A stretch of 64,000 nt of DNA from a virus (lineage: Duplodnaviria > Caudoviricetes): positions 32,001 to 96,000 of IMG/VR virus record IMGVR_UViG_3300037067_026718. One strand, written 5' to 3'. How positions within the stretch are numbered: the first letter of the stretch is position 1; every line of letters begins with the position of its first letter. Shown here piece by piece: positions 25,316 through 54,452 of this stretch. Below the pieces are notes generated by a model. That model was not told where the DNA came from, searched no databases, and saw only the letters and a list, made by a program, of their open reading frames with translations. Made by a program: the position numbers and the translations under genes.

Positions 25316-26044
25316 CTAAACCCGGGGGATCCTTCGTAGATAGTTCATCGTATTTTTGCGCAGCAATGCCGAGGCCAGGGCTCCTGCTGCGGCACCAATG
25401 AGAGTAGTCCTTGCGGATAGCAAATAGTTTCTGTAAGTGGCCAATGCGGACATGCGGACTGGGCTGTTCTCGGGGACCCCGGCCCTGTTCCAGGCTTCTA
25501 CTTCCTGCCTGTACAAAGGAGTGTTTTCTGGATCCGAGAACATGGAAGATATCATCGACCGGTACTGGCCTCGTCTTTTCGTAAGAGATCCCGATTCCTT
25601 CCAGTCGCTGTAATGCCCCAGTTCATGGCGCATGACTTCATCAACCACTGGAGGCTTCACGGATATGGCTGGCTTGCCTCCCTTGACAGGAGGTTCAACA
25701 AAGAAACCGTGCCCTGGTCTTGTGGAGTTCAAAGCTTTGCGGTAGAGCATCCGCTTCAGAACATTCACGCCTGGCTGCTTGAGCCATTTGTTTATCTCTT
25801 CTTTGTTGGAAAGTACGCTGATATCTTCCGGGAATGATGTAACATCGAATTTCTTCGCTTTTCCAAATTCTCGTTCCACTTTCGACAACGCTACCAATGA
25901 GATAATCGTGTTGGCGAGCATTCCAGCCATGGATCCAGCTACTGCTCCTCCGAATATTTCCCTGCCTGGAACAGGGCCACTCGACCATCCCGCACGCTTC
26001 TCGAGCTCTATCCTGGCTGCAAGCTTGATGATGTGGTGGTTCAT
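25316..26044 (-). CDS. HEXXH zincin-like metalloprotease with a KxA leader and 2 hydrophobic helices
   Basis: MRHELGH plus downstream E (QEVEAW); leader IKLAA..EKRAG; TGATG coupling to the RNAP stop. Confidence 0.7.
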   Translation of the reverse strand: MNHHIIKLAARIELEKRAGWSSGPVPGREIFGGAVAGSMAGMLANTIISLVALSKVEREFGKAKKFDVTSFPEDISVLSNKEEINKWLKQPGVNVLKRMLYRKALNSTRPGHGFFVEPPVKGGKPAISVKPPVVDEVMRHELGHYSDWKESGSLTKRRGQYRSMISSMFSDPENTPLYRQEVEAWNRAGVPENSPVRMSALATYRNYLLSARTTLIGAAAGALASALLRKNTMNYLRRIPRV

Positions 26045-29000
26045 CAGTACTCCCCTGTTCTCCAGAGATCTCTTCCGAAGTCGATGCCTTGCAGGAACGG
26101 AGTAACTGGCTTTACTCCTTTTGAAGGACTCATGGCGCCCATGGCTGCGCTTTCCTGAAGCTGTCGAACCATGTCTCTACCCAGCATCTTGAGTGCCCAG
26201 TCAGGTTCGTTTTTTGCCAGATCGTAATCCATGCCGTCAAAGACCGGTTCGTACTTGATCAGCGCATCGCTGTCGCCTATATCCGCATTGATCGCCTGCA
26301 GCTCTTTGATGTCCTTGATGTCACCTGTCATCATGTCCTGGCTGCTGCCGGGATCCAAAACCTTGCCGTATCTCGTAAGGGCCGCCACTACTGTCTCTAT
26401 GTACCGGCGGTCTGGAGCCTTGCCGCCGTAGTTCCTTTCGATTTCGTCAACAAGGTAGTTCTGCATGGCCCTAAGGCCGTTGTATTTCATGACATCGTTG
26501 GGATCCGGAAGACCTTCATTGATCTGAAATCCGGCCTTCAGGCGATCGCCTACGGCAACCTTGAGCGGAGCATTGGTAGACGTGGTGAAAGACGTTCCGT
26601 CCTGCATGATGATTTCGTAGCCGCCGCCTCGCATCTTATTGATCTTGCCCACCACGCCGGCCTCAGGAGCAAGAGTGGCCTTCGCTCCGGCAGGGGCTCT
26701 TCCATTCAAGAGAGGCCAGATGGCATACAAGCCTTCTATTTTGTTGCTGGAAAGAGCGGAGCCTCCACCATGGAAAGCCTTCAACGTGAGCTGAACAGCC
26801 GGCTCGGTAAGGGTGTGGGCCGATATGACTCCTATGTCGGCGCCGACCTTCGGCTTCTCTCCATCCGGGAGTCTACCGAAATCCTTGGCGTAGAACCCGG
26901 TTTTTGCCACTGACGTCAAGGGAGATCTTACCATCACCGTCTTGATCTTGTTCGAACGGGCTGATGCTATCAGCTCTTCTGTTATGGGATCCCCGGCCAC
27001 GGCCAATGTTTTCCCCGCCGGGGTTACCAGGTCGAAAGCCAGGTATCTCTGAAGCACGGTGGGATGGTCAATGGGATACTCGATACCATCGGTAGGGTTT
27101 GCATCTCCGGGTGCCACTACGCTGCCCAGGGTAGACCTCAGAAGCTGCTTGCTGAAATAGCCGGGCTCCCTGACTTCAATGCTCTTCGAATGCAGAGCAG
27201 GCCGGTTGCCTTTCGATGCCACCCAGTAGTCCATGAAATCGAGTCCTTCTCCGTATCCGGTGCGGATCAGATGAGGGATAGGGCCGTCGAATCCGTTCAC
27301 CGTCATGGGAGAAAACTTGATCTGCATGACATTGGACCAATTCCCCTTGGCTCCGGAATCAGCAAGGACGGCAACTGCCGACCGAGGGTCTATTGAAGAC
27401 CTGAGCCTGGAGTAGACAGAGTCGGTTTCCTTCTGAGCCAAGAAGCCGCCAACGGACTTGGACATCTCTTCCTTGCTTATCGGCATGAAGTCCTTCAGGC
27501 TGAATGACAACCCAACCCTGGTGTTGAAGGCATTGCCCAGATCGGTGAGTTTCATCAAAGTGTTGACGTAATCCCCGGGAGCATGCTTACCCACAGCGTT
27601 GAGTATCTCGCCTATCTTCTTGTCGTTGTAGACTACATTGTAACCCTGTCTGAACTGCTCAGGAATGGCTTTGTTCACCAAAATACGACCGGCAGTGACA
27701 ACGACATTGCCTTTGTCTGTTTTGAGGGTTACTCCGTCATTGAGGGCTATTTCATTGGCTTCGTAAGCCTCTATGACTTCCCTCTCGGTGGTGTACTTCT
27801 TGTCGGGCCTCGGGTCTACGAAGTGAGTACCGTAATAGAGGCCGGCAATGGTGTCTTCCTCGGGACGCATGATCGTCTGGTCCAGCCCGGGCTTGAACAG
27901 GTTCTTGGATGGCAGCAGCTTTTCTCTGGCTTCCCTCACCGCTTCGTCGGAAACCGGGACGGAATAGCCCATTGCATCGCCATCGAAGTCGGCATTGAAG
28001 CCACGGGCTATCAAAGGACTGATCTCCATGGACTTGCCCGGTATCATCTTGGCCCAGAAAGCCATGACGTTGAACTTGTGGAGCTTGGGGTCCCTGGTGA
28101 TCATGACCGGACGATGTTTCATCTCGGCCTGCAGAGTTGCTTCAGCCAAAGCTTCCCTGTCTTCTATCATCCGCCTGGCTTCCAGAGGGGGGATGCCTTC
28201 CTTGGTCAGCCTGCGCATTACGAAAGAATGGAAGAGCGGCCATGCTGATTCTTCGGGAAGTCCGATCTCGTCTACGGACAAACCGGGATTGGGCCTGATG
28301 ACTGCACGGCCGCCAACCGACTGACGTTTGTCGAATATCTTATCCTGGAAATGCCCCCAGGAGGAAGACTCCCCCTTGAGATATTCGAGGATCCCGGTCC
28401 TCGGCTTGGCTCCGTACCCTATGCCCGTGGCCCCTATCTGGATCGCCTTTACGGCATCGTAGAGGTTCGTCCTCACTTCATCCAGTACGGAGGCCGGCAT
28501 GCTGCCCTGGCCGTCCTTGAGCGTCATGGCAAGCGTTCCTATGTCCTGGTACAGAGCTGTGAAATCACTGACCCTTATCCCGTTGTCTTTCGTGAGGTAC
28601 ACCGGTCTGAACTGCGGAGGAAGAACCGGAACCTTGGATATGACGTAAGCGTTCTCCGGTTTGATGCCGATGCGCTGCAGAGCGTTCAGGTACCGCAATT
28701 TCTTGACCATGGCATCCTTGGCAGTACCGGTGTGATTGGGGATCATCTCCTTCAAAGACTTGATGGAAGACTCTACGTCAATGGACGAAAGCATGGCTTT
28801 GAAAGCATGGCCACCGGTGATGGACTTGTCCCCCTTTACCCGGGGAGCCAGTACTCCGTCTTTGTACCCTACCCTGCCGGCGATGATGTCATCATAGGCG
28901 CCCTGCGTCAGGCCCAGGATGGCTCTGATAGCCTTTTCGTAAACCGGGTTGGGAAGAGGCTCCGCCAGGGAGATATGCCCCCATTTGTCTCCCTGCATGC

Positions 29001-32000
29001 CTCCAAGAAGCTTTTCATCGTAGAGGCCGCCTTCGTATGACTGCAACATCTCGTATTTACCGGGACGCCCGATCCGGGTGGCCATCGCTGGATTGGGTAT
29101 TTCGCCCGAACTCATCCTGTCGACTTCTCTGTCGGTGAGAGGCAAAAGCTGGTAATTGTCGCCTTGCTTGCGGACATCAATGCCGGCGCCTTTGAGTAGT
29201 GCCTGCAACTTTTTGAACGCAAAGGTCATCTGGGGCGATGGAATGTTGCTGCCTTCCTCAACGGCCCTCCAGAAATCATCGTTCTTCTCGCTCTTGGTGG
29301 TCGCTATCTCCCGCAGGTTGCTCGTGGCTCCATGGGCCAACAGAGCGTAGAATCCCAGGCCTCCCATCTTGGGTCCCTTAATGGGGCGCTGGCTGACTAT
29401 GTCGTAAGGATCGCTTCTGTTGCGAACATTGAAGTACGGCTCGGCCTCCTGCTTCTGCCGGGTAAAGTACTGATACCCGGTCATTACCTTGATGGGCCTG
29501 TCACCATCCTTGATGGGATTGCCGTCCTTGTCGTAGATCTCTTCCTGGTCTTCAAGACCGTATTCCTTCATTTTCTTGTATACGGCCTCCGGAGAGCTCC
29601 CCTTCAGGTTGAAAAGCTCCACAATGAAAGGTATACCGGTGTGGGCGGCTATCTTCGAAGCTGCGGCCTCGATTACCTGGCCGGTGTTGTTCCTTGAGGT
29701 GACGGCGGCCGGGTTCTGAAGAATGTCGAACGGCTGACCACTTTTGTCATGAGGCATTTCATCGTCGGGAAGGATCGCAGATACGACGCCCTTCGCCTGA
29801 TGACGATTGGAATTGCCAGTCCAGCATGCCTTCCCGTTGCGACGGACATACATCACATGGTTGGGAACAGTGCAGCAATACACCAGGCCGTCGTAATCAA
29901 CCAGTTTTTCCTCCTGGATGTGCTGTGACTTTGTATGGCCATGGTTGACCATGGGCTCAGTTTTCTTCCTGATAACAGAAACCCTGTATCGATCGGCATG
30001 GGCTTCATTGTCATCCCTAAGGCACGGAGTTACATTGGCAGCCATCCCGGCTTTCAATGCTATTTCCTGAACGTCATCAGCCAAGCGCTTACTCGTAGTG
30101 GAGTAACTCACACATGAAAAACTGGAGCCGTCGCAAGAAAGCAGTGCATCCAAAAGAATATTCATCTGCCTCTGCGACAACTCCATGAACTCCCTGGGGA
30201 CATACTTGTCGTTGGCGTGTCCGAGTACCGATAGATACTCATTGAGCTGCCTTGAGGATATGATGATTTTGCCTTCCCTGGGATTGTACGGCCACTTCAT
30301 TCTATCAAGGCATGCTGTGATTCTGTGGTAGACGTAACCACCATACGAATTCTTTGTTGTTTTATTCTTATTGATAGTTACGTAATATCCATCTTTCGAG
30401 AAATGGCCATCAGCTATGTAATACCCCAGGAATTCCAGCCAGTCATCCATGGCTACTTCAGGAAGCCCATGGGGGCTGAAGCCATGATGACGGCCATCCA
30501 CAGTCAGCAGGCAAAACTCTGATGCTTCCTTACCTATCCAAGTTCCATTCTTCTTGTACTGGACTCGTCGGCCCATAATATCCTGAGCCTGATGCAAGGC
30601 GAATGATTGAGCTCTCCGCGTTTTGACCAGCATGTTGTGATTGAGAGTCGTCAGCAAGTCGATCTGCTGAGACCGGATGCCATACATTTTTCCGGTGTGC
30701 CAATAGGAGAACACAGCCTCTGGATGCTGGTATTCCACAATTCCGGTATCCTGGTTGAGCGTGCATACCTGCTCATTAACGGTGAGATCAGAAACCGGGA
30801 TCCAACCCCTCTGGGTAAGGTATTCGTGGTCATCTGAAAGACACAGCTTATCCCCTGTCTTTACCGACCGCTCCGACCGCACGAAAATCTTGATCCCGGT
30901 GGGAGTACGGACTATTCTTTCGACGACGCCCGGGTCGCTGGCTTCCCAGACCTTGTCATCCCTGATCAGTTGCTGCTTCATTACCTGGCTCACATTGCCT
31001 GCCAGGATATCCTCCTGGGTCAAGCTTTTGGGGGTGAGCTTGAGGATGATAGGGTCACCGGTGTTCAACACGGTGCCTTCTTTGACAACTCCGTCATCAT
31101 CTATGTTGTCGAGCTGCATGGCCCGGTACTCTTTGGGATAGAGGGCCTTGAACCTGTTCTTATTGAAAACGTCATGCTTCCTGGAGCTGGCTTCCACCTG
31201 GTCTACGTGGATGGCTTTCATCTTCTCGGCAGCGCTCTCGGATATCAGCAGGCCGTCCATGAAGTTCCAGCCCTTGTATGGAAGAAAGGCCACTCTGAGA
31301 TTGCGCCCCATAGCCAGCATGCCGTTCCTGATGAAACTGTTGGTGGCGACTGCCTGCCCCTTCTTTACTATTTCACCCGCCTTTACAACGGGTATTTCAT
31401 GGATGACATTGCCTCCGTTGAGAGGGTAGTTTGTGTAAAGCTCTATGTCTTCGGTATCGCCGGTCTTGATGTCGCGCAGGGTGATGGAGTCCTTCTTCAC
31501 CTTCACGACTTCGCAATCGCCCATGTAAGAAGGAACGCGCCGAGAGAATCGGTTGCCGAACTCTTGTTCCGCGGTGAAGACGGATCCATCCGCGTTTTTG
31601 TGAACCCCGGCCAATACCAAGGGGTTTTCCGGCTCTGCAAGCATGAGAGCATGTGTGCTTTGCTTGACGGACATAGTGCTTCTTGTAGGAATGTTGTTGG
31701 GAAGGAATGGGATCAAAAGGCTTGCCCAGTCAAAAGCATGGTGGGGGGAGGCTATGACGTAATCGATCTTCGAGTATGGAACCTCAACTATCTCGCCGTG
31801 ATGCAATGCCTTTACCTTGGCCTTGTTGGGAAGGTACACCCCGGTTTCGCGCATGCTGTACTCACCAGGAATGGCGGTGTACTTGTCGTATATCTCCCGG
31901 GGGGTAACCGCCTTTGTTCCGGATTGCTTGCCCGTGGTGAAATCGAGAACGGAAGCCTTGAGCTCCCTCCCCACCTTCCGGGCGCCGGACGACAGATGCA

Positions 32001-33222
32001 TGTTGACACCAACTCGGTCAGTGGTCGGCGTGAAGATGGGATCGATGAACCCCATGGAGCTGTCATTCAGCTCTCTCATGCCTTCCGTGATGGCATAGGA
32101 GGAGCCCACACCGCCTTCGCCCATCTGAGTGACCTCAGTGGCATCAGAGAGGATCCCTATTGGATTTATCTGTTCGGGGTTGTAGACGACATCAGCCTGA
32201 ACGAACTTGCTGCTCATCAGCTTCCGGATCTCAGAAAGTGGCCTGGCCAGAATGTCTTTCTCGTCATACTGGTTGCTGTCCACCCTGTAGGCCAGCTTGT
32301 TCTTTATCTTGTTTGCCTGGTTCTCGATGCCGTAAAGGATGAGATCGTTGTATCCATAGATGTCCTGGAAATGCAGATCATCCCTGTTGTCAGGCTTCAC
32401 TGTGCCGGCGCTGACGTCCAGCATCTTTCGGGTGGCATCCATCAAAGCATGGCGGTCTGCAGCCTTGTATTCCTTGCCCAGAGTTACTTTGGACACCCAT
32501 GGGTCAAGAACGGTGGTTTCAAAAGCAGCCTTGAGCTGATCGGCCTTCTCGTTCGAATTTCTTGCTGTTCCTGTGTAGCTGAGCATCGTGCTGTACAAAC
32601 GCTCAAGCACGGAGCTATGGGTAGAAGGAGAGCGGAAGTTGGCCCTGTAGATCTGCTCACCCCATTGTTTCTGTATCTGCTCATCGGGAACGCCCAGTAT
32701 CCTCAGTACGGAATAAGCCGGAAAAGCCTTTCCTCCTACATCAAACCTGATTCTCATGGTCTCGGGATCGTAGTTGATCTTGATGTTCTGCCGTGTCTTG
32801 GTATTGATGAAAGCCTGCACGCCATCAGCCTGTTTGGTAACGTATATCCCCGGGGAAAGCCGCAACTGCTTCTTGACAGATACTTCGGACCCTTCCACAA
32901 CGAAAGTCCCCCTGGCTGTCGGGAAAGGCAGTCTGAACAGGATTTTGCCGGCGCTTCTCTTCTTCTCATTACCGCGCTCGTCGGTCATGACAATGTCGGC
33001 CCTTATCGGTATGGAATAGCTTGAGTCTCTTTCTCGGGCCGCTCTCTCGAGCGCAGGGTTGACCAGTTTGTCGGGAAGGTCGAACTTGATGTTCTCAATT
33101 CGTATTCCCCGCAACTTTCCCTGGTAAGAAAGGATCTGGGGCAGTCTTTCCCGGAGGCTCGAAAGCAGAGTGACGTAGTCTCGGTAGACATCTATTCGAT
33201 GCAGATTTTCATCAATACGCAT
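26044..33222 (-). CDS. rpoBC: single-chain fused DNA-directed RNA polymerase beta-beta' (intein-containing)
   Basis: Beta motifs GTFVVEG..QLRLSPG, EQINP..GEGG, LIPFL, MGRNLRVAF, GDKL/SNRHQAKG, NP..TSR.N.GQ; beta' motifs GHISL, VPVLPPQFRP, RDPKLH, NADFDGD (27976-27996), SGAKG, bridge helix and trigger loop QLTLKAFHGGG. Confidence 0.96.
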   Translation of the reverse strand: MRIDENLHRIDVYRDYVTLLSSLRERLPQILSYQGKLRGIRIENIKFDLPDKLVNPALERAARERDSSYSIPIRADIVMTDERGNEKKRSAGKILFRLPFPTARGTFVVEGSEVSVKKQLRLSPGIYVTKQADGVQAFINTKTRQNIKINYDPETMRIRFDVGGKAFPAYSVLRILGVPDEQIQKQWGEQIYRANFRSPSTHSSVLERLYSTMLSYTGTARNSNEKADQLKAAFETTVLDPWVSKVTLGKEYKAADRHALMDATRKMLDVSAGTVKPDNRDDLHFQDIYGYNDLILYGIENQANKIKNKLAYRVDSNQYDEKDILARPLSEIRKLMSSKFVQADVVYNPEQINPIGILSDATEVTQMGEGGVGSSYAITEGMRELNDSSMGFIDPIFTPTTDRVGVNMHLSSGARKVGRELKASVLDFTTGKQSGTKAVTPREIYDKYTAIPGEYSMRETGVYLPNKAKVKALHHGEIVEVPYSKIDYVIASPHHAFDWASLLIPFLPNNIPTRSTMSVKQSTHALMLAEPENPLVLAGVHKNADGSVFTAEQEFGNRFSRRVPSYMGDCEVVKVKKDSITLRDIKTGDTEDIELYTNYPLNGGNVIHEIPVVKAGEIVKKGQAVATNSFIRNGMLAMGRNLRVAFLPYKGWNFMDGLLISESAAEKMKAIHVDQVEASSRKHDVFNKNRFKALYPKEYRAMQLDNIDDDGVVKEGTVLNTGDPIILKLTPKSLTQEDILAGNVSQVMKQQLIRDDKVWEASDPGVVERIVRTPTGIKIFVRSERSVKTGDKLCLSDDHEYLTQRGWIPVSDLTVNEQVCTLNQDTGIVEYQHPEAVFSYWHTGKMYGIRSQQIDLLTTLNHNMLVKTRRAQSFALHQAQDIMGRRVQYKKNGTWIGKEASEFCLLTVDGRHHGFSPHGLPEVAMDDWLEFLGYYIADGHFSKDGYYVTINKNKTTKNSYGGYVYHRITACLDRMKWPYNPREGKIIISSRQLNEYLSVLGHANDKYVPREFMELSQRQMNILLDALLSCDGSSFSCVSYSTTSKRLADDVQEIALKAGMAANVTPCLRDDNEAHADRYRVSVIRKKTEPMVNHGHTKSQHIQEEKLVDYDGLVYCCTVPNHVMYVRRNGKACWTGNSNRHQAKGVVSAILPDDEMPHDKSGQPFDILQNPAAVTSRNNTGQVIEAAASKIAAHTGIPFIVELFNLKGSSPEAVYKKMKEYGLEDQEEIYDKDGNPIKDGDRPIKVMTGYQYFTRQKQEAEPYFNVRNRSDPYDIVSQRPIKGPKMGGLGFYALLAHGATSNLREIATTKSEKNDDFWRAVEEGSNIPSPQMTFAFKKLQALLKGAGIDVRKQGDNYQLLPLTDREVDRMSSGEIPNPAMATRIGRPGKYEMLQSYEGGLYDEKLLGGMQGDKWGHISLAEPLPNPVYEKAIRAILGLTQGAYDDIIAGRVGYKDGVLAPRVKGDKSITGGHAFKAMLSSIDVESSIKSLKEMIPNHTGTAKDAMVKKLRYLNALQRIGIKPENAYVISKVPVLPPQFRPVYLTKDNGIRVSDFTALYQDIGTLAMTLKDGQGSMPASVLDEVRTNLYDAVKAIQIGATGIGYGAKPRTGILEYLKGESSSWGHFQDKIFDKRQSVGGRAVIRPNPGLSVDEIGLPEESAWPLFHSFVMRRLTKEGIPPLEARRMIEDREALAEATLQAEMKHRPVMITRDPKLHKFNVMAFWAKMIPGKSMEISPLIARGFNADFDGDAMGYSVPVSDEAVREAREKLLPSKNLFKPGLDQTIMRPEEDTIAGLYYGTHFVDPRPDKKYTTEREVIEAYEANEIALNDGVTLKTDKGNVVVTAGRILVNKAIPEQFRQGYNVVYNDKKIGEILNAVGKHAPGDYVNTLMKLTDLGNAFNTRVGLSFSLKDFMPISKEEMSKSVGGFLAQKETDSVYSRLRSSIDPRSAVAVLADSGAKGNWSNVMQIKFSPMTVNGFDGPIPHLIRTGYGEGLDFMDYWVASKGNRPALHSKSIEVREPGYFSKQLLRSTLGSVVAPGDANPTDGIEYPIDHPTVLQRYLAFDLVTPAGKTLAVAGDPITEELIASARSNKIKTVMVRSPLTSVAKTGFYAKDFGRLPDGEKPKVGADIGVISAHTLTEPAVQLTLKAFHGGGSALSSNKIEGLYAIWPLLNGRAPAGAKATLAPEAGVVGKINKMRGGGYEIIMQDGTSFTTSTNAPLKVAVGDRLKAGFQINEGLPDPNDVMKYNGLRAMQNYLVDEIERNYGGKAPDRRYIETVVAALTRYGKVLDPGSSQDMMTGDIKDIKELQAINADIGDSDALIKYEPVFDGMDYDLAKNEPDWALKMLGRDMVRQLQESAAMGAMSPSKGVKPVTPFLQGIDFGRDLWRTGEY
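29812..30843 (-). mobile_element. intein with LAGLIDADG homing endonuclease (344 aa) in the RNAP beta moiety
   Basis: C1 CLSDDHEYLT, block B TTLNH, LEFLGYYIADG and LLDALLSCDG, block F VYCCTVPNH, C-terminal WTGN/S; removal restores GDKL-SNRHQAKG. Confidence 0.93.
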
Positions 33223-33875: not shown

Positions 33876-33903
33876 AACGAAGCTCCTCTCTGTTGCTAAG
33901 ATG

Positions 33904-33931
33904 ATTATACCCGAATACGGGTTCCACGCAA
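33904..33931 (-). promoter_or_regulatory. sigma-70-type promoter, 16-bp spacer
   Basis: TTGCGT-N16-TATAAT upstream of the papain-like/RNAP operon. Confidence 0.7.
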
Positions 33932-33932
33932 G

Positions 33933-33959
33933 AGAAAGGCCCCGCTCGTGCGGGGCCTT
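33933..33959 (-). terminator. intrinsic terminator
   Basis: AAGGCCCCGC-ACGA-GCGGGGCCTT followed by TCTCTT. Confidence 0.65.
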
Positions 33960-33982
33960 GCCTCACCATCGGCGTATATGCG

Positions 33983-36487: not shown

Positions 36488-36525
36488 ATGAAAGATTCCT
36501 TTCGGATGATTACTCTCTATCCACT

Positions 36526-36553
36526 ATTGTACCGCAAAACGCGAAGAACGCAA
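36526..36553 (-). promoter_or_regulatory. sigma-70-type promoter, 16-bp spacer
   Basis: TTGCGT-N16-TACAAT upstream of the polyprotein. Confidence 0.7.
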
Positions 36554-36602
36554 GTGTCAATTACAGTGGTGATGAAAGTATAAAAAAATAATAGGCTGCC
36601 GG

Positions 36603-36633
36603 AAAAAAATAAAAAGGGGCGATGCCGCCCCTT
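36603..36633 (-). terminator. intrinsic terminator
   Basis: AAGGGGCG-GCAT-CGCCCCTT followed by TTTATTTTTTT. Confidence 0.8.
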
Positions 36634-36761
36634 CGTTTTTTACCACTTCAAGTATTTTCCAGTGGCTTTGCAGAAAGGCTGAAGGTGTCCCATCCCGCCT
36701 GCCTTCATTCCTTTCCCCGCCACGAGCAAGAAGATTATCTTGAAGACACGAAAAACTACCT

Positions 36762-50563: not shown

Positions 50564-50942
50564 GGGTGGAACTCCCTTCTTCATCCGTTTTCATGCGTTC
50601 TACAGTACCGGGGGCAGTTGATGCTTTCCTTGCTTTGTTTTTTGCTTCTGCTATTTCGATAGCCCTGTCCCTCAGGGGAATATGGTGGTTCTTGTTTGCA
50701 GGATCAAAGGCTAATTTCTGCTTGAAGGGTCGTAATTCTGTCAAGGCTTTGGTCATGGTTCTCATGTTTCTGGATTCATGTGCGGCTGTGATCCTGGCCA
50801 TCATCCTGTCGAGAGTACGATCGTCGGGGAAGTGGTACTTGGCCCCAAGATAAGAAATGGTTTTCAGCTTCTTGACCATGCGGGGTGATGCCGTAACAGT
50901 CAAGTAAGCTTCGTCCTGGCTAACAAGGGATCTTTTGGACAT
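50550..50942 (-). CDS. hypothetical basic protein
   Basis: 130-aa ORF, AAAGGA RBS. Confidence 0.6.
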   Translation of the reverse strand: MSKRSLVSQDEAYLTVTASPRMVKKLKTISYLGAKYHFPDDRTLDRMMARITAAHESRNMRTMTKALTELRPFKQKLAFDPANKNHHIPLRDRAIEIAEAKNKARKASTAPGTVERMKTDEEGSSTHGLE

Positions 50943-51924
50943 CTTCGTTCCTTTCTTTTATTTCTTCTTTTATCGGGTATAAATATAATGGACCAAGAAT
51001 CACCTTGGGCCTCATACAGAAGGAGAACATCATGATGGATCCTAGCCTGGAAGACACCGACTTCGGTTTTGATACCGAAGAAATAGAGGACTTCTGGGAC
51101 TCAGAAAGCTCAGAATCCCAGTAAGCGCCGCGTCTTTTGGGGGGGTCTTGTGCCGCAAGGCCCTCCCTCACCCTCGATTCGGCCTTGCCCAGGATCTGTC
51201 TGATTCTTTCTCTGGACAGATTGAGAACATGGCCTATCTCTCGTAAAGTGTGCCTGTGGCACTGCAGACCATGGCGCCGACAAAACACATCTTTTTCCCT
51301 GGCCGGAAGACCAGATACGATCGCCATGATTTTGTCCATCATGATCCCATCGGCTATCTCGTCTTCTCCGGACTGACATGAAACCACTTCATCGTTGTAT
51401 TCCTCGTACTGCAGACAGCTCACCGCGCTGTTGATCCTATTCATGTCGAGATTGAGGTCCGCTGCCAAGCCAAGGTAGTCTACATCCTCCATGGTTCTCT
51501 GCATGAGTTCAGCACTGAGCTGCCTGACAAAATCGATCTGGTAGAGAGTCCCGGGAGGAACATAAGCACAGGTGCTGGTAGTCCTGATGTACTTGTTGAT
51601 CCTCTGCTTTGCCCATTTTTTGGCGTACGTAGCAAACTTCGTGCCTCTGTCCGGGTCGAAACGGGACGCTGCTTCATAGTACCCGTCGATACCGCAGGAT
51701 ATGATGTCTTCAAAACAAATCGGAGGCTTGATGTAGTACTCCTGAGCGCAGGCGATGAAAAGGTATCTGAGATTGGCCATGACCAGTTTATTTTTAGCTT
51801 CAGCCACATCGTTGGGATTGTCTGAGGACTGAATGATGACTCCCAGCCGATGTTCTTCTTCCCTCGTTATGGGAACGGCTTCCGCAAGCATTCCTCTGTA
51901 ACTGTCAGGGATGAATGGCTTCAT
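50920..51924 (-). CDS. RNA polymerase sigma-70 family factor (RpoD/RpoS-like regions 1.2-4)
   Basis: ITREEE, KLVMANLR, RFDPDRGTKFATYA..W, LPAREK...TLREIG..LNLSRERIRQI. Confidence 0.93.
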   Translation of the reverse strand: MKPFIPDSYRGMLAEAVPITREEEHRLGVIIQSSDNPNDVAEAKNKLVMANLRYLFIACAQEYYIKPPICFEDIISCGIDGYYEAASRFDPDRGTKFATYAKKWAKQRINKYIRTTSTCAYVPPGTLYQIDFVRQLSAELMQRTMEDVDYLGLAADLNLDMNRINSAVSCLQYEEYNDEVVSCQSGEDEIADGIMMDKIMAIVSGLPAREKDVFCRRHGLQCHRHTLREIGHVLNLSRERIRQILGKAESRVREGLAAQDPPKRRGAYWDSELSESQKSSISSVSKPKSVSSRLGSIMMFSFCMRPKVILGPLYLYPIKEEIKERNEDVQKIPC

Positions 51925-52349: not shown

Positions 52350-54452
52350 TTATCCCATTCCTTCTCTACGTGGAGGGAGGACATCCGGCATAGGCTGAGT
52401 GCCATCATTATTCGCTTGCTGCGGACTGTTCTGGGCTCCTTCACCAGGGTTGATACCGACCCCCTGGGCTCGAAGGGCGCTGACAATTGCGTTGTATGTT
52501 TCTTGGTCATACTGATGAACGTGGTTGAGGAATGCTGTTCTTTCCTGATCTTCCATGCTTGAGAGCAAGCCGGTAATGAAGCTGATTCTGTCCTCCCCCT
52601 GAAGGGATGGCTGCCCAACCCCTCCGGCTTCCATCGAAGAGAACAGGAACCGGTCTTTCTGACCTCTGTTCAAGGATGTCTGAGCATTGGCCTGTTCCCT
52701 CATGAGGAAGGTATCGGTAGCCCTCTGGGACTTCGCAATGGCCGCCTGCCTGGCCATGAACTGGTTGACAGCGATGTTGTGCTGGAGGATGATGCTTGCA
52801 GCAATTTCAGGGGGGATCCCTTTTTGCGTATACGACTCAAACAGAGAAAGAGTCTTGTCTTTGCTGACGCGAAGCATGTCATCGGCATCTGAAGCTGCGC
52901 TGCTGGACATCATGCCTTGTATCTTGATATTGGCATCAGCCTGTGACTTGGCTGCTATGTCCTGAACGGCGGCCGATACCTGGGCTTGCCATATCTGGTA
53001 TTCCTTCATGCCAGCGCGTTCTTTGACGGGATCCAGGCCCAACGTCTTGCAGTAGGTGTCATGGCAAAAGGCTCCGTTTCGGAATCCTTCCGAGACCTGA
53101 TTTTTGTACATGACATCGTCTACACGCCTGAATTCCTTGAACGCCAGGGTATGCTTGGGGATGGCAGTTCCCATGTATTCCTGCAGCAGGCTGGAGAAAA
53201 ACTTGCAGGCCTGATTGTATCCGTTATAGGTTTCGATCCATGAGTTTTCAACAATGCGCATAGCCGCGGTGCTGCCGGCATAGTGCGCAGAGCCGTTGAA
53301 GAGCCCTCGAGGAGATCCCATGGCCAACATGGCTTCTTCGGTGTTGTACTGTATCTGAGCCGTCGGGAAAAGCATGTTGCCACGGCCCAAAGCCTGTTCA
53401 ACTCCGATGGGTATGTTCGAAATGACGAAGTGTGATGGATTCTTGACCCATTTTTTTAGCTCGCCAAACAATTCGTCGCGGAACTTGTTCAGCAAGATGG
53501 ACCCCTTGCTTAGATTTTCGTCACCTGCAAGCCTGGGGAAAAACATCGGTAGAGGAACGGTATGCTGTATCGCTATGGCTTCGGTTGCTTTCTCCAGCAG
53601 CAAATTGTTGTAGAGCTGGTTGAAAGGCTTGAGACCGCCCGGCTCGGGCCAAGGCATATCGACCTGGGTCGGATCCTCTATTCTGATGATGAACAGGTTG
53701 TCATTGTCCAGCAGCAAGGAGTTGCCGGTCATGGCCGCCTTGAGGTAATCCAAGGAGCTTCTCTTGATGTACCATTTGTCACCGCGCTTTATGCGTCTGG
53801 TAGCCTTTTCCGAAGGAGTATACCAACATACGTAATCGCCGGTGATCTCATGGGTCTTCATATCGACCCTGGTAGGATCGAAGTGAGATATCCGAACATT
53901 TTTGAAAGTAGCCGATACTTCTTCCGATGCGCTGAACGATACCTTCTTCTCTTTGCATTTCGGACAGGTACCGGTAAAGATGAGTTCCTTTTTCTTGCAC
54001 TCCATCTTCCAACTGTCGTCATCCATCGACTCGAGTGCGCTGGTTTCTCCGCACTTGCTACATTTAAGGCTAATGGCAGGGCATATCCAGAGGTATGCAA
54101 ATGCGATATTGAAAAGATGGAGGTCTATGCCTATCCTTTTGATGGACGGTATCAGCTTCAGCGCTTCGTAGTCTTTCTTCAGCTTGTCGATTTTCTGAGA
54201 TCTGGCCTCCGGAGCAAGCTTGGCATCTTCTTCAGCAAGTTCGATCTCTATCTCCGTAAGAGGATATGTAGCTTTCTGTTGTATGATATAACGGAGTGTA
54301 CCGTTCCGCTTGTAAAGCCATCGAGCAACAAGTTGCTTTTCCTTCCTTGAAACCGGTCTCTCCATTTCGGACCGGAGTCCGACAAAGGGAGAAGGCGCCG
54401 GCACACTGGCATAGTTAGAGACGGGACTACCGGAATAGATGGGATCACTCAT
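52350..54452 (-). CDS. putative portal protein with a zinc-ribbon insertion
   Basis: 700 aa; portal-like order (GIDLHLFNIAF, IAIQHTVP, MLAMGSP..LF, L.FKEF); CSKC...CPKC insert; disordered tail; head-module context. Confidence 0.65.
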   Translation of the reverse strand: MSDPIYSGSPVSNYASVPAPSPFVGLRSEMERPVSRKEKQLVARWLYKRNGTLRYIIQQKATYPLTEIEIELAEEDAKLAPEARSQKIDKLKKDYEALKLIPSIKRIGIDLHLFNIAFAYLWICPAISLKCSKCGETSALESMDDDSWKMECKKKELIFTGTCPKCKEKKVSFSASEEVSATFKNVRISHFDPTRVDMKTHEITGDYVCWYTPSEKATRRIKRGDKWYIKRSSLDYLKAAMTGNSLLLDNDNLFIIRIEDPTQVDMPWPEPGGLKPFNQLYNNLLLEKATEAIAIQHTVPLPMFFPRLAGDENLSKGSILLNKFRDELFGELKKWVKNPSHFVISNIPIGVEQALGRGNMLFPTAQIQYNTEEAMLAMGSPRGLFNGSAHYAGSTAAMRIVENSWIETYNGYNQACKFFSSLLQEYMGTAIPKHTLAFKEFRRVDDVMYKNQVSEGFRNGAFCHDTYCKTLGLDPVKERAGMKEYQIWQAQVSAAVQDIAAKSQADANIKIQGMMSSSAASDADDMLRVSKDKTLSLFESYTQKGIPPEIAASIILQHNIAVNQFMARQAAIAKSQRATDTFLMREQANAQTSLNRGQKDRFLFSSMEAGGVGQPSLQGEDRISFITGLLSSMEDQERTAFLNHVHQYDQETYNAIVSALRAQGVGINPGEGAQNSPQQANNDGTQPMPDVLPPRREGMG

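Follow-up and report, generated by a model that had tools for sequence, protein, structure and literature searches.

A gene for an unusual RNA polymerase is the subject of this article. It was found on a stretch of viral DNA of 64,000 nucleotides (positions 32,001 to 96,000 of the IMG/VR record IMGVR_UViG_3300037067_026718; Duplodnaviria, Caudoviricetes), which as a whole is called the window below. A single polypeptide encoded by this gene comprises the entire catalytic core, beta plus beta', of a bacterial-type multisubunit RNA polymerase (RNAP); the gene resides in the genome of a tailed phage of about 150 kb. The best explanation as a whole, and one we regard as probable, is that the fused enzyme would be packaged, injected into the host, directed by sigma factors and independent of alpha. 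Packaging, sigma dependence and alpha independence we infer from the evidence discussed below.

The gene lies on the minus strand and is organized as follows, residues being counted in the unspliced protein.

26044..33222, minus strand: RNAP open reading frame (ORF) of 2392 residues with beta, an intein and beta' in one frame (uninterrupted frame, Pfam)
30844..33222, minus strand: N-extein of beta, residues 1-793, ending in GDKL with the first active-site lysine; it holds the fork/rifampicin-pocket region and the flap
29812..30843, minus strand: intein, residues 794-1137, 344 residues long (alignment with intein-free relatives)
29158..29811, minus strand: C-extein of beta, residues 1138-1355, from SNRHQAKG through the C-terminal clamp piece of beta ending in GIDVRKQGD
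29137..29196, minus strand: beta/beta' junction, LKGAGIDVRKQGD followed by NYQLLPLTD, residues 1343-1364 (alignment; no linker)
26047..29157, minus strand: beta' part, residues 1356-2392 (PDB matches, E. coli alignment, model)
28465..28584, minus strand: lid and clamp-helix region of beta', residues 1547-1586, the main part of the predicted interface with region 2 of a 244-residue phage sigma factor (see below)
27976..27996, minus strand: catalytic, Mg-binding motif NADFDGD, residues 1743-1749
26761..26793, minus strand: trigger-loop motif QLTLKAFHGGG, residues 2144-2154

A ribosome-binding site (AAGGA) is found 5' of the ATG. Pfam detects Rpb2_3 and Rpb2_6 and then Rpb1_1/2/3/5, which is the bacterial order; LAGLIDADG_3 and a weak match to Intein_splicing, below the Pfam cut-off, are inserted between the two halves of Rpb2_6. 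Upon splicing, the active-site lysines of GDKL and SNRHQAKG become contiguous, and the chain is left with 2048 residues. LKGAGIDVRKQGD is the C-terminal end of beta (residues 1343-1355), and the very next residues, NYQLLPLTD, open beta' at about residue 18 of the E. coli subunit. In a sequence search of the PDB, bacterial beta' is matched by the beta' half (E-value 4e-88) and bacterial beta by the N-terminal 793 residues (2e-40), while the sole match of the jumbo-phage type has an E-value of 1e-6. A second, independent Logan assembly yields an ORF of identical length, 2392 residues, with 26 substitutions. The junction is in frame and conserved in relatives of 44-74% identity.

All conserved regions of beta and beta' of E. 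coli K-12 can be aligned to the phage protein. NADFDGD, the trigger-loop motif, the bridge-helix pattern, the clamp helices and the flap tip are kept; the residues of the rifampicin pocket are mostly substituted. Both zinc sites of bacterial beta' are gone: the N-terminal zinc ribbon by deletion, the second site through replacement of each of its four cysteines (Cys814/888/895/898). The spliced protein of 2048 residues contains one single cysteine, at residue 570. An AlphaFold model of residues 1200-2392 reaches a mean predicted local distance difference test score (pLDDT) of 88.9 and a predicted template modelling score (pTM) of 0.88. It places a confident beta-hairpin across the beta/beta' junction, where the blocks on either side have a pLDDT of 93-97, and superposes on bacterial beta' chains with template modelling (TM) scores of 0.77-0.79.

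A preliminary description of the window had most of this right. The frame of 2392 residues, reduced to 2048 by removal of the intein, is confirmed together with the intein borders; the direct joint of beta and beta', which had been placed near 29100-29200, is now located precisely; and NADFDGD, the GDK..RH..KG lysines, the bridge helix and the trigger loop, said to be intact, are so in the alignment. That the protein is phage-encoded, bacterial-type and single-chain agrees with the order of the Rpb2 and Rpb1 profiles, the PDB matches, the likeness of the model to bacterial beta' and the phage genes described below. The term "streamlined" was justified only in part. As judged by the alignment, much of the streamlining comes down to lineage-specific inserts of E. 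coli (SI1 and SI2 of beta, SI3 of beta') that the phage protein simply lacks. Genuine losses concern the zinc ribbon and the second zinc site, and also about 57 residues of beta 1111-1240, the rim helices, the jaw and the C-terminus of beta', which are absent or shortened. In E. coli, beta 1111-1240 and the beta' C-terminus help to contact alpha and omega.

The window is part of a contig, C3, of 157,672 bp, which had been assigned to a bin of 295 contigs and 4.85 Mb with an estimated contamination of 6%. C3 encodes a gpA-type terminase large subunit (TerL; PF05876), baseplate J, a portal protein, and replication and recombination genes. The best cultured-phage match of its TerL by E-value is Salmonella phage Arash, and distant homologues of Arash proteins on C3 comprise the portal, TerL, several virion (structural) proteins and a sigma factor. 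Because terminase, baseplate J, portal and the Arash-like structural genes are present, C3 is, by its gene content, a tailed phage and not a bacterial chromosome. The bin's own rpoB, rpoC and rpoA are separate genes and sit on other contigs. C3 itself carries a single RNAP gene set. A further bin contig of 2.9 kb contains an rpoB-like fragment (G000:C262:1821-2837, plus strand) with 26-30% identity to the phage beta; it probably stems from another organism in the bin.

The polymerase is not a singular case. A word-indexed search returned 955 matches; 111 of the top 120 have at least 1900 residues, on contigs of up to 210 kb. An exhaustive HMMER search with the beta' half covered 1.84 billion representatives of 50%-identity clusters. 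Its best 150 matches were examined: 125 have at least 1900 residues, and in these the beta' match mostly starts near residue 1000 or later. In IMG/VR at least 473 contigs contain a relative; the best 80 loci include 57 with an obvious fusion and 4 in which beta' is a gene of its own. On the beta' tree (see below), short metagenomic proteins are placed beside near-identical fused ones and therefore look like fragments. Close relatives are few: identity drops from 74% and 53% to 44-51% and then to about 35%. Among the matches listed from a scan of named-genome contigs there were no fused relatives, only cellular rpoC of 25-29% identity, which served as outgroup.

A beta' tree was built from 81 rows and 1053 columns (IQ-TREE quick search, LG+G4); archaea and Helicobacter are not in it, and deeper claims would be premature. 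In it, a branch with a support of 100 sets apart the 26 bacteria, which come from seven phyla. The fused metagenomic proteins, Arash and Vibrio phage D69 form one clade of 51 rows apart from the bacteria, with a value of 100 in the Shimodaira-Hasegawa-like approximate likelihood ratio test (SH-aLRT). The RNAP of the window belongs to a subclade of 12 rows, all fused, with a support of 100 and a long stem. The direct junction and the loss of the zinc ribbon are common to all aligned family members. On this tree and alignment, we are dealing with a monophyletic, large family of phage RNAPs in which fusion is the rule.

The second zinc site has a different history. It is kept by most of the family, in which the ribbon is missing throughout, and is lost in the subclade of the window RNAP. 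Sampled members of this subclade have 0-1 cysteines; of 7 remoter family members checked, five have 4-5, which would fit retention of the second zinc site, and the other two are cysteine-free.

The cultured phages show other layouts. In Arash and Vibrio D69, beta and the N-terminal half of beta' form one protein (about 1525 residues), and the C-terminal half of beta' is a separate one (about 606 residues). Since both are found among the fused members, their split is, on this tree, probably secondary. YerA41 and Cobetia phage Carin-5 have separate subunits in the order beta' and then beta; the Rhizobium phage RHph_Y65 and Vibrio phage Va2 have a lone beta' gene within the stretch examined. These four branch outside the fused clade.

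A cellular counterpart was also seen. In a metagenome-assembled genome (MAG) of Candidatus Paceibacterota (L101, DATJQA010000074.1), rpoB and rpoC are fused in one open frame that contains GDK..RH..KG and NADFDGD. This fusion keeps most of the zinc ribbon, one of the four cysteines being replaced, and groups with the bacteria on the tree.

Inserted between the active-site lysines of beta, the intein is missing from close relatives at precisely that point. It presents itself as a class 1 LAGLIDADG intein: Cys1, block B with TLNH (the TxxH pattern), two LAGLIDADG blocks with acidic residues, a terminal Asn, Ser at position +1, and precise absence from homologues. With the intein of relative P0003 it shares 95% identity, against about 70% for the exteins; for relative P0004 the values are 78% and 45-61%. 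Being far better conserved than its exteins, it appears to have spread recently by horizontal transfer or homing; the identities suggest that this occurred between diverged phage RNAP genes. Among 238 sampled family proteins, all of at least 1700 residues, 85 have a large insert at the same site, and further recurrent sites are found near residues 434, 1492 and 1970 of the spliced protein. The family is an intein hot spot, with the site of the window RNAP as the commonest one, and offers a system for the study of homing in essential phage genes. The same phage contains a second LAGLIDADG intein, in a protein of 894 residues that is a homologue of the structural protein gp222 of Arash (C3:124148-126832, L013:8148-10832, minus strand).

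The received view is that a cellular RNAP depends on the alpha dimer as its assembly platform, on omega as chaperone, and on zinc for beta' to fold. Two hallmarks of a bacterial core enzyme, an encoded alpha dimer and two zinc sites, are lacking here. On the entire 157-kb contig there was no match to alpha (PF01000, PF01193), and in the assembly only the bacterial rpoA matched. Nor was alpha found above the cut-off in 17 related near-complete phage genomes. Omega (PF01192) did not score above the cut-off on the phage either, a result of low power, as the bacterial contigs also gave none. The omega profile in fact found nothing above its cut-off anywhere in the bacterial bin, which is 95% complete, and matched in 14 of 14 control genomes.

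Sigma factors, however, are encoded twice by the phage:

50920..51924, minus strand: sigma-70-family factor of 334 residues with Sigma70_r2 and r4, PHROG 351
C3:102343-103077 (L012:6343-7077), minus strand, outside the window: sigma factor of 244 residues, homologue of Arash gp10 (profile and sequence match)

The smaller one matches Sigma70_r3 above the cut-off, with weak matches of regions 2 and 4, and is 27% identical to Arash gp10 (E 6e-11). Both sigma types also occur in Arash. With two phage sigma-70-family genes at hand, the enzyme is, by gene content, probably sigma-dependent rather than self-sufficient. A model of the complex between the 244-residue sigma and the N-terminal 445 residues of beta' scored 0.71; the best of 3 controls scored 0.00. 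The mark applied is reached by 58 of 80 solved complexes and by 2 of 110 mismatched pairs, counts that are only roughly valid here because a custom alignment was used. The runs share at least 55% of their contacts, the pLDDT of the partner is at least 73, and in the predicted interface, sigma residues 30-70 meet the lid and clamp-helix region of beta'. Since this is the textbook interface of sigma region 2 with the clamp helices, memory of solved holoenzymes may explain the pass. The model thus speaks for a likeness to such holoenzymes, not for binding of this particular pair.

These data bear on the remaining claims of the preliminary description. The lack of alpha, then noted for the window, extends to the whole contig. 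A viral RNAP lineage, possibly alpha-independent, had been proposed. The lineage indeed falls outside cellular RpoC, and the window RNAP does not branch inside a cellular rpoBC fusion clade, the Paceibacterota fusion staying with the bacteria; yet rather than a new lineage standing alone, it is part of a very large phage family that includes cultured members (Arash, Vibrio D69), and independence of alpha would still be a matter of inference. The two sigma-70-family genes had been overlooked.

That the polymerase travels in the phage particle is suggested by related phages. In the virion proteome of Arash, the RNAP protein gp206 has the highest spectrum count and the RNAP protein gp216 the fifth highest, and sigma gp10 was detected (PMC10585845; the paper annotates gp206 simply as a beta subunit). 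YerA41, too, has a sigma factor in its particles, along with RNAP subunits (PMC7354516). Of 81 related loci, 44 have a portal homologue and 35 a TerL homologue within 10 kb of the RNAP gene. In the loci inspected, the RNAP gene has the portal gene upstream and the TerL gene downstream; upstream is also where the portal gene is found in Arash and D69. This proximity implies that in most of the family the RNAP gene belongs to the head/packaging module.

How might such an enzyme work? The intein would splice out to leave the enzyme of 2048 residues. The covalent joint of beta and beta', combined with a fold that requires no zinc and almost no cysteine, would replace the assembly roles of the alpha dimer and of omega. 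The phage sigma-70-family factors would recognize the promoters, docking on the retained clamp helices of beta' and the flap tip of beta. As in Arash and YerA41, the virion would carry the polymerase together with the gp10-type sigma, and both would enter the cell with the DNA; a protein with one cysteine and without zinc would suit passage through the tail and refolding. Early phage genes could then be transcribed without the host enzyme, and the second sigma may serve later gene classes. From the substituted pocket, insensitivity to rifampicin is predicted. More tentatively, and with somewhat less than even confidence, we envisage the spliced chain of 2048 residues plus one small phage sigma as a complete machine of two proteins, free of alpha, omega and zinc and nearly free of cysteine, which would be carried in the capsid, would enter together with the DNA and would not respond to rifampicin. 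If this is true, it would be a natural minimal RNAP of the cellular type, used by hundreds of uncultured phage lineages.

Several observations weigh against a packaged, sigma-directed enzyme that does without alpha. An RNAP in the virion is known only for the half-split Arash and for YerA41, which has separate subunits and stands outside the clade. In the present phage, the portal gene is 19 kb away from the RNAP gene, which is beside neither portal nor terminase; its immediate neighbours are non-conserved genes of unknown function. Nothing supports a link of C3 to the bacterial bin, as no short exact matches were seen between the contig and the rest of it. Of 17 related genomes, only 9 show Sigma70_r2 at E ≤ 0.01, a count that can also be read in favour of phage sigma factors. 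A promoter search of 73-82 intergenic regions (6-8-mers, and 14-mers with up to 2 mismatches) disclosed only terminator-like and ribosome-binding-site motifs. GCAA-N19-ATAAGA is absent from the contig. GTCATAA is not enriched there (13 observed, 14.6 expected); 6 copies are intergenic, have no extended motif in common, and one of them is located at a tmRNA-like call by ARAGORN (see below). The penultimate residue of the intein is Gly, where His is usual. Finally, the use of host alpha, omega or sigma would be compatible with sequence evidence, if taken alone.

The position of the gene leads to the most serious competitor. The fused enzyme could be made after infection from early genes transcribed by the host and could serve middle or late genes without ever being packaged, like the RNAP of T7 or the non-virion RNAP of phiKZ. 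Apart from the distance to portal and terminase, the early expression of the YerA41 RNAP genes (PMC7354516) fits this idea, and the Arash authors themselves concede that enzymes in purified particles may partly reflect abundance or carry-over (PMC10585845). The Arash RNAP, however, tops the spectrum counts of the virion, with sigma detected too; the RNAP gene is near the portal or TerL gene in many related loci; and the contig has a single RNAP gene set. We therefore consider an unpackaged enzyme unlikely, though well worth keeping in mind.

A little less credit is due to a hybrid enzyme, in which the phage chain would replace the large subunits of the host and still assemble on the host alpha dimer, perhaps also with host omega or sigma. 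Engineered beta-beta' fusions of E. coli still use alpha, most core regions of the phage protein align with bacterial beta and beta', and no phage protein has been identified as a substitute assembly platform. Yet none of 18 phage genomes of the family has an alpha gene, beta 1111-1240 and the beta' C-terminus are shortened, and a packaged enzyme would need to work on arrival. RNAPs of the phiKZ/AR9 type function without alpha anyway (PMC7598289, PMC13282480). On balance, this too is unlikely.

It is very improbable that the gene is inactivated, be it by an intein that no longer splices or by decay of the polymerase. The penultimate Gly and the Intein_splicing score below the Pfam cut-off might be so interpreted, but Cys1, the TxxH block, the terminal Asn and the +1 Ser are in place, the frame of 7.2 kb is uninterrupted and all catalytic motifs are conserved. 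Moreover, an intein that surpasses its exteins in identity to the relatives P0003 and P0004, and whose site carries a large insert in so many family proteins, fits a recently mobile, working element.

Least of all do we believe in a mis-binned chromosomal rpoBC fusion or in a false fusion due to an assembly or frameshift error, as far as sequences can tell a refuted reading: the contig does come from a bacterial bin with some estimated contamination, and cellular fusions such as that of the Paceibacterota MAG exist, but the contig has phage hallmark genes, the bin has its own rpoB, rpoC and rpoA elsewhere, a branch with a support of 100 parts the bacteria, including the cellular fusion, from the window RNAP, and the junction is in frame in the independent assembly and in the relatives.

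A packaged, sigma-directed and alpha-free polymerase thus continues to be the reading we prefer, and we can turn to the surroundings of its gene:

52350..54452, minus strand: portal protein, homologue of Arash gp204 and Vibrio D69 0259
25316..26044, minus strand: ORF of 242 residues without a family match, the start of which overlaps the RNAP stop

The stop codon TGA of the RNAP gene shares bases with the ATG of this ORF (TGATG, 26042-26046), and the overlap suggests translational coupling of the two. The flanking ORFs of 212, 834 and 242 residues have no Pfam or PHROG match, and none has a homologue beside the RNAP in 81 related loci. GC-rich, terminator-like stems followed by a T-run (e.g., GGGGCC and then the T-run) are seen in several intergenic gaps of the minus strand, among them 33876-33982 and 36488-36761 of the window, the gaps around the ORF of 834 residues upstream of the RNAP gene. 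Elsewhere on C3, ARAGORN called a putative transfer-messenger RNA (tmRNA-like; L010:7394-7718, minus strand, tag peptide GTRELRVA*), a tRNA-Leu(CAA) at L010:6859-6944 (minus strand) and a tRNA-Lys(UUU) at L010:14177-14252 (minus strand). The first 3,647 bases of C3 (1-3647) are exactly repeated at 149068-152714, and about 5 kb of unrelated sequence follow; this may be a terminal repeat with a mis-joined tail.

Among known systems, the RNAPs of Arash (gp206 plus gp216, with sigma gp10; OQ632216; PMC10585845) and of the Vibrio phages D69/D181/D148 are the most similar. They belong to the same beta' clade, have the same junction and lack the zinc ribbon, and with Arash the present phage shares a homologous portal, TerL, several virion proteins and a gp10-type sigma. 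In Arash and D69, however, beta' is split again, whereas the window RNAP is one chain, and identity is only 27-33%. Further, the window RNAP has an intein, has lost the second zinc site and is not encoded beside the portal gene.

The likewise multisubunit-type virion and non-virion RNAPs of phiKZ/AR9-type phages also do without alpha and omega, and one set is packaged into the virion. They consist, however, of 4-5 polypeptides, work without a sigma-70-family factor and are very distant in sequence from the window RNAP. The enzymes of crAss-like phages, YonO and the P23-45 gp96 type are also one polypeptide with both double-psi barrels, and some of them are virion proteins. They can barely be aligned to cellular RNAP, in contrast to the window RNAP with its matches to Rpb1/Rpb2 domains and its clear similarity to bacterial beta'.

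Fused rpoBC genes are known from cells, for instance in Helicobacter and Wolbachia, and the genomes that have them also encode alpha. Like the phage gene, these fusions join beta and beta' head to tail in one ORF; the Paceibacterota one differs by its largely retained zinc ribbon and its place among the bacteria.

The reviews of jumbo-phage RNAPs examined do not mention a fused bacterial-type enzyme, and a full-text literature search, which did not cover subscription journals, turned up no account of a phage RNAP of bacterial type in fully fused form. A natural one-chain enzyme that can be aligned with bacterial RNAP position by position and yet dispenses with alpha, omega and zinc would offer a compact system in which to study assembly, sigma recognition and the minimal core, and also a candidate for an orthogonal transcription module. 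In IMG/VR and in metagenomes the family abounds; as the 2020 survey lists split forms only, at least in the rows considered here, a major transcription strategy of phages may have gone unrecorded.

The closest precedent in print is that survey, by Weinheimer and Aylward (2020, PMC7481178). It introduced mReC, Caudovirales that encode a multisubunit RNAP; their beta and beta' can be aligned to bacterial RNAP and fall outside the cellular clades. In the rows of its Supplementary Data 2 considered here, beta and beta' are separate ORFs, compared with one ORF for the window RNAP, and the paper mentions fusion only for crAss-like phages. The TerL family differs as well, being PF03237 in mReC and PF05876 on C3. 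Bacterial-like beta and beta' genes of phages have thus already been published as mReC; what the window RNAP adds is the complete fusion, the intein in the active site and the loss of both zinc sites.

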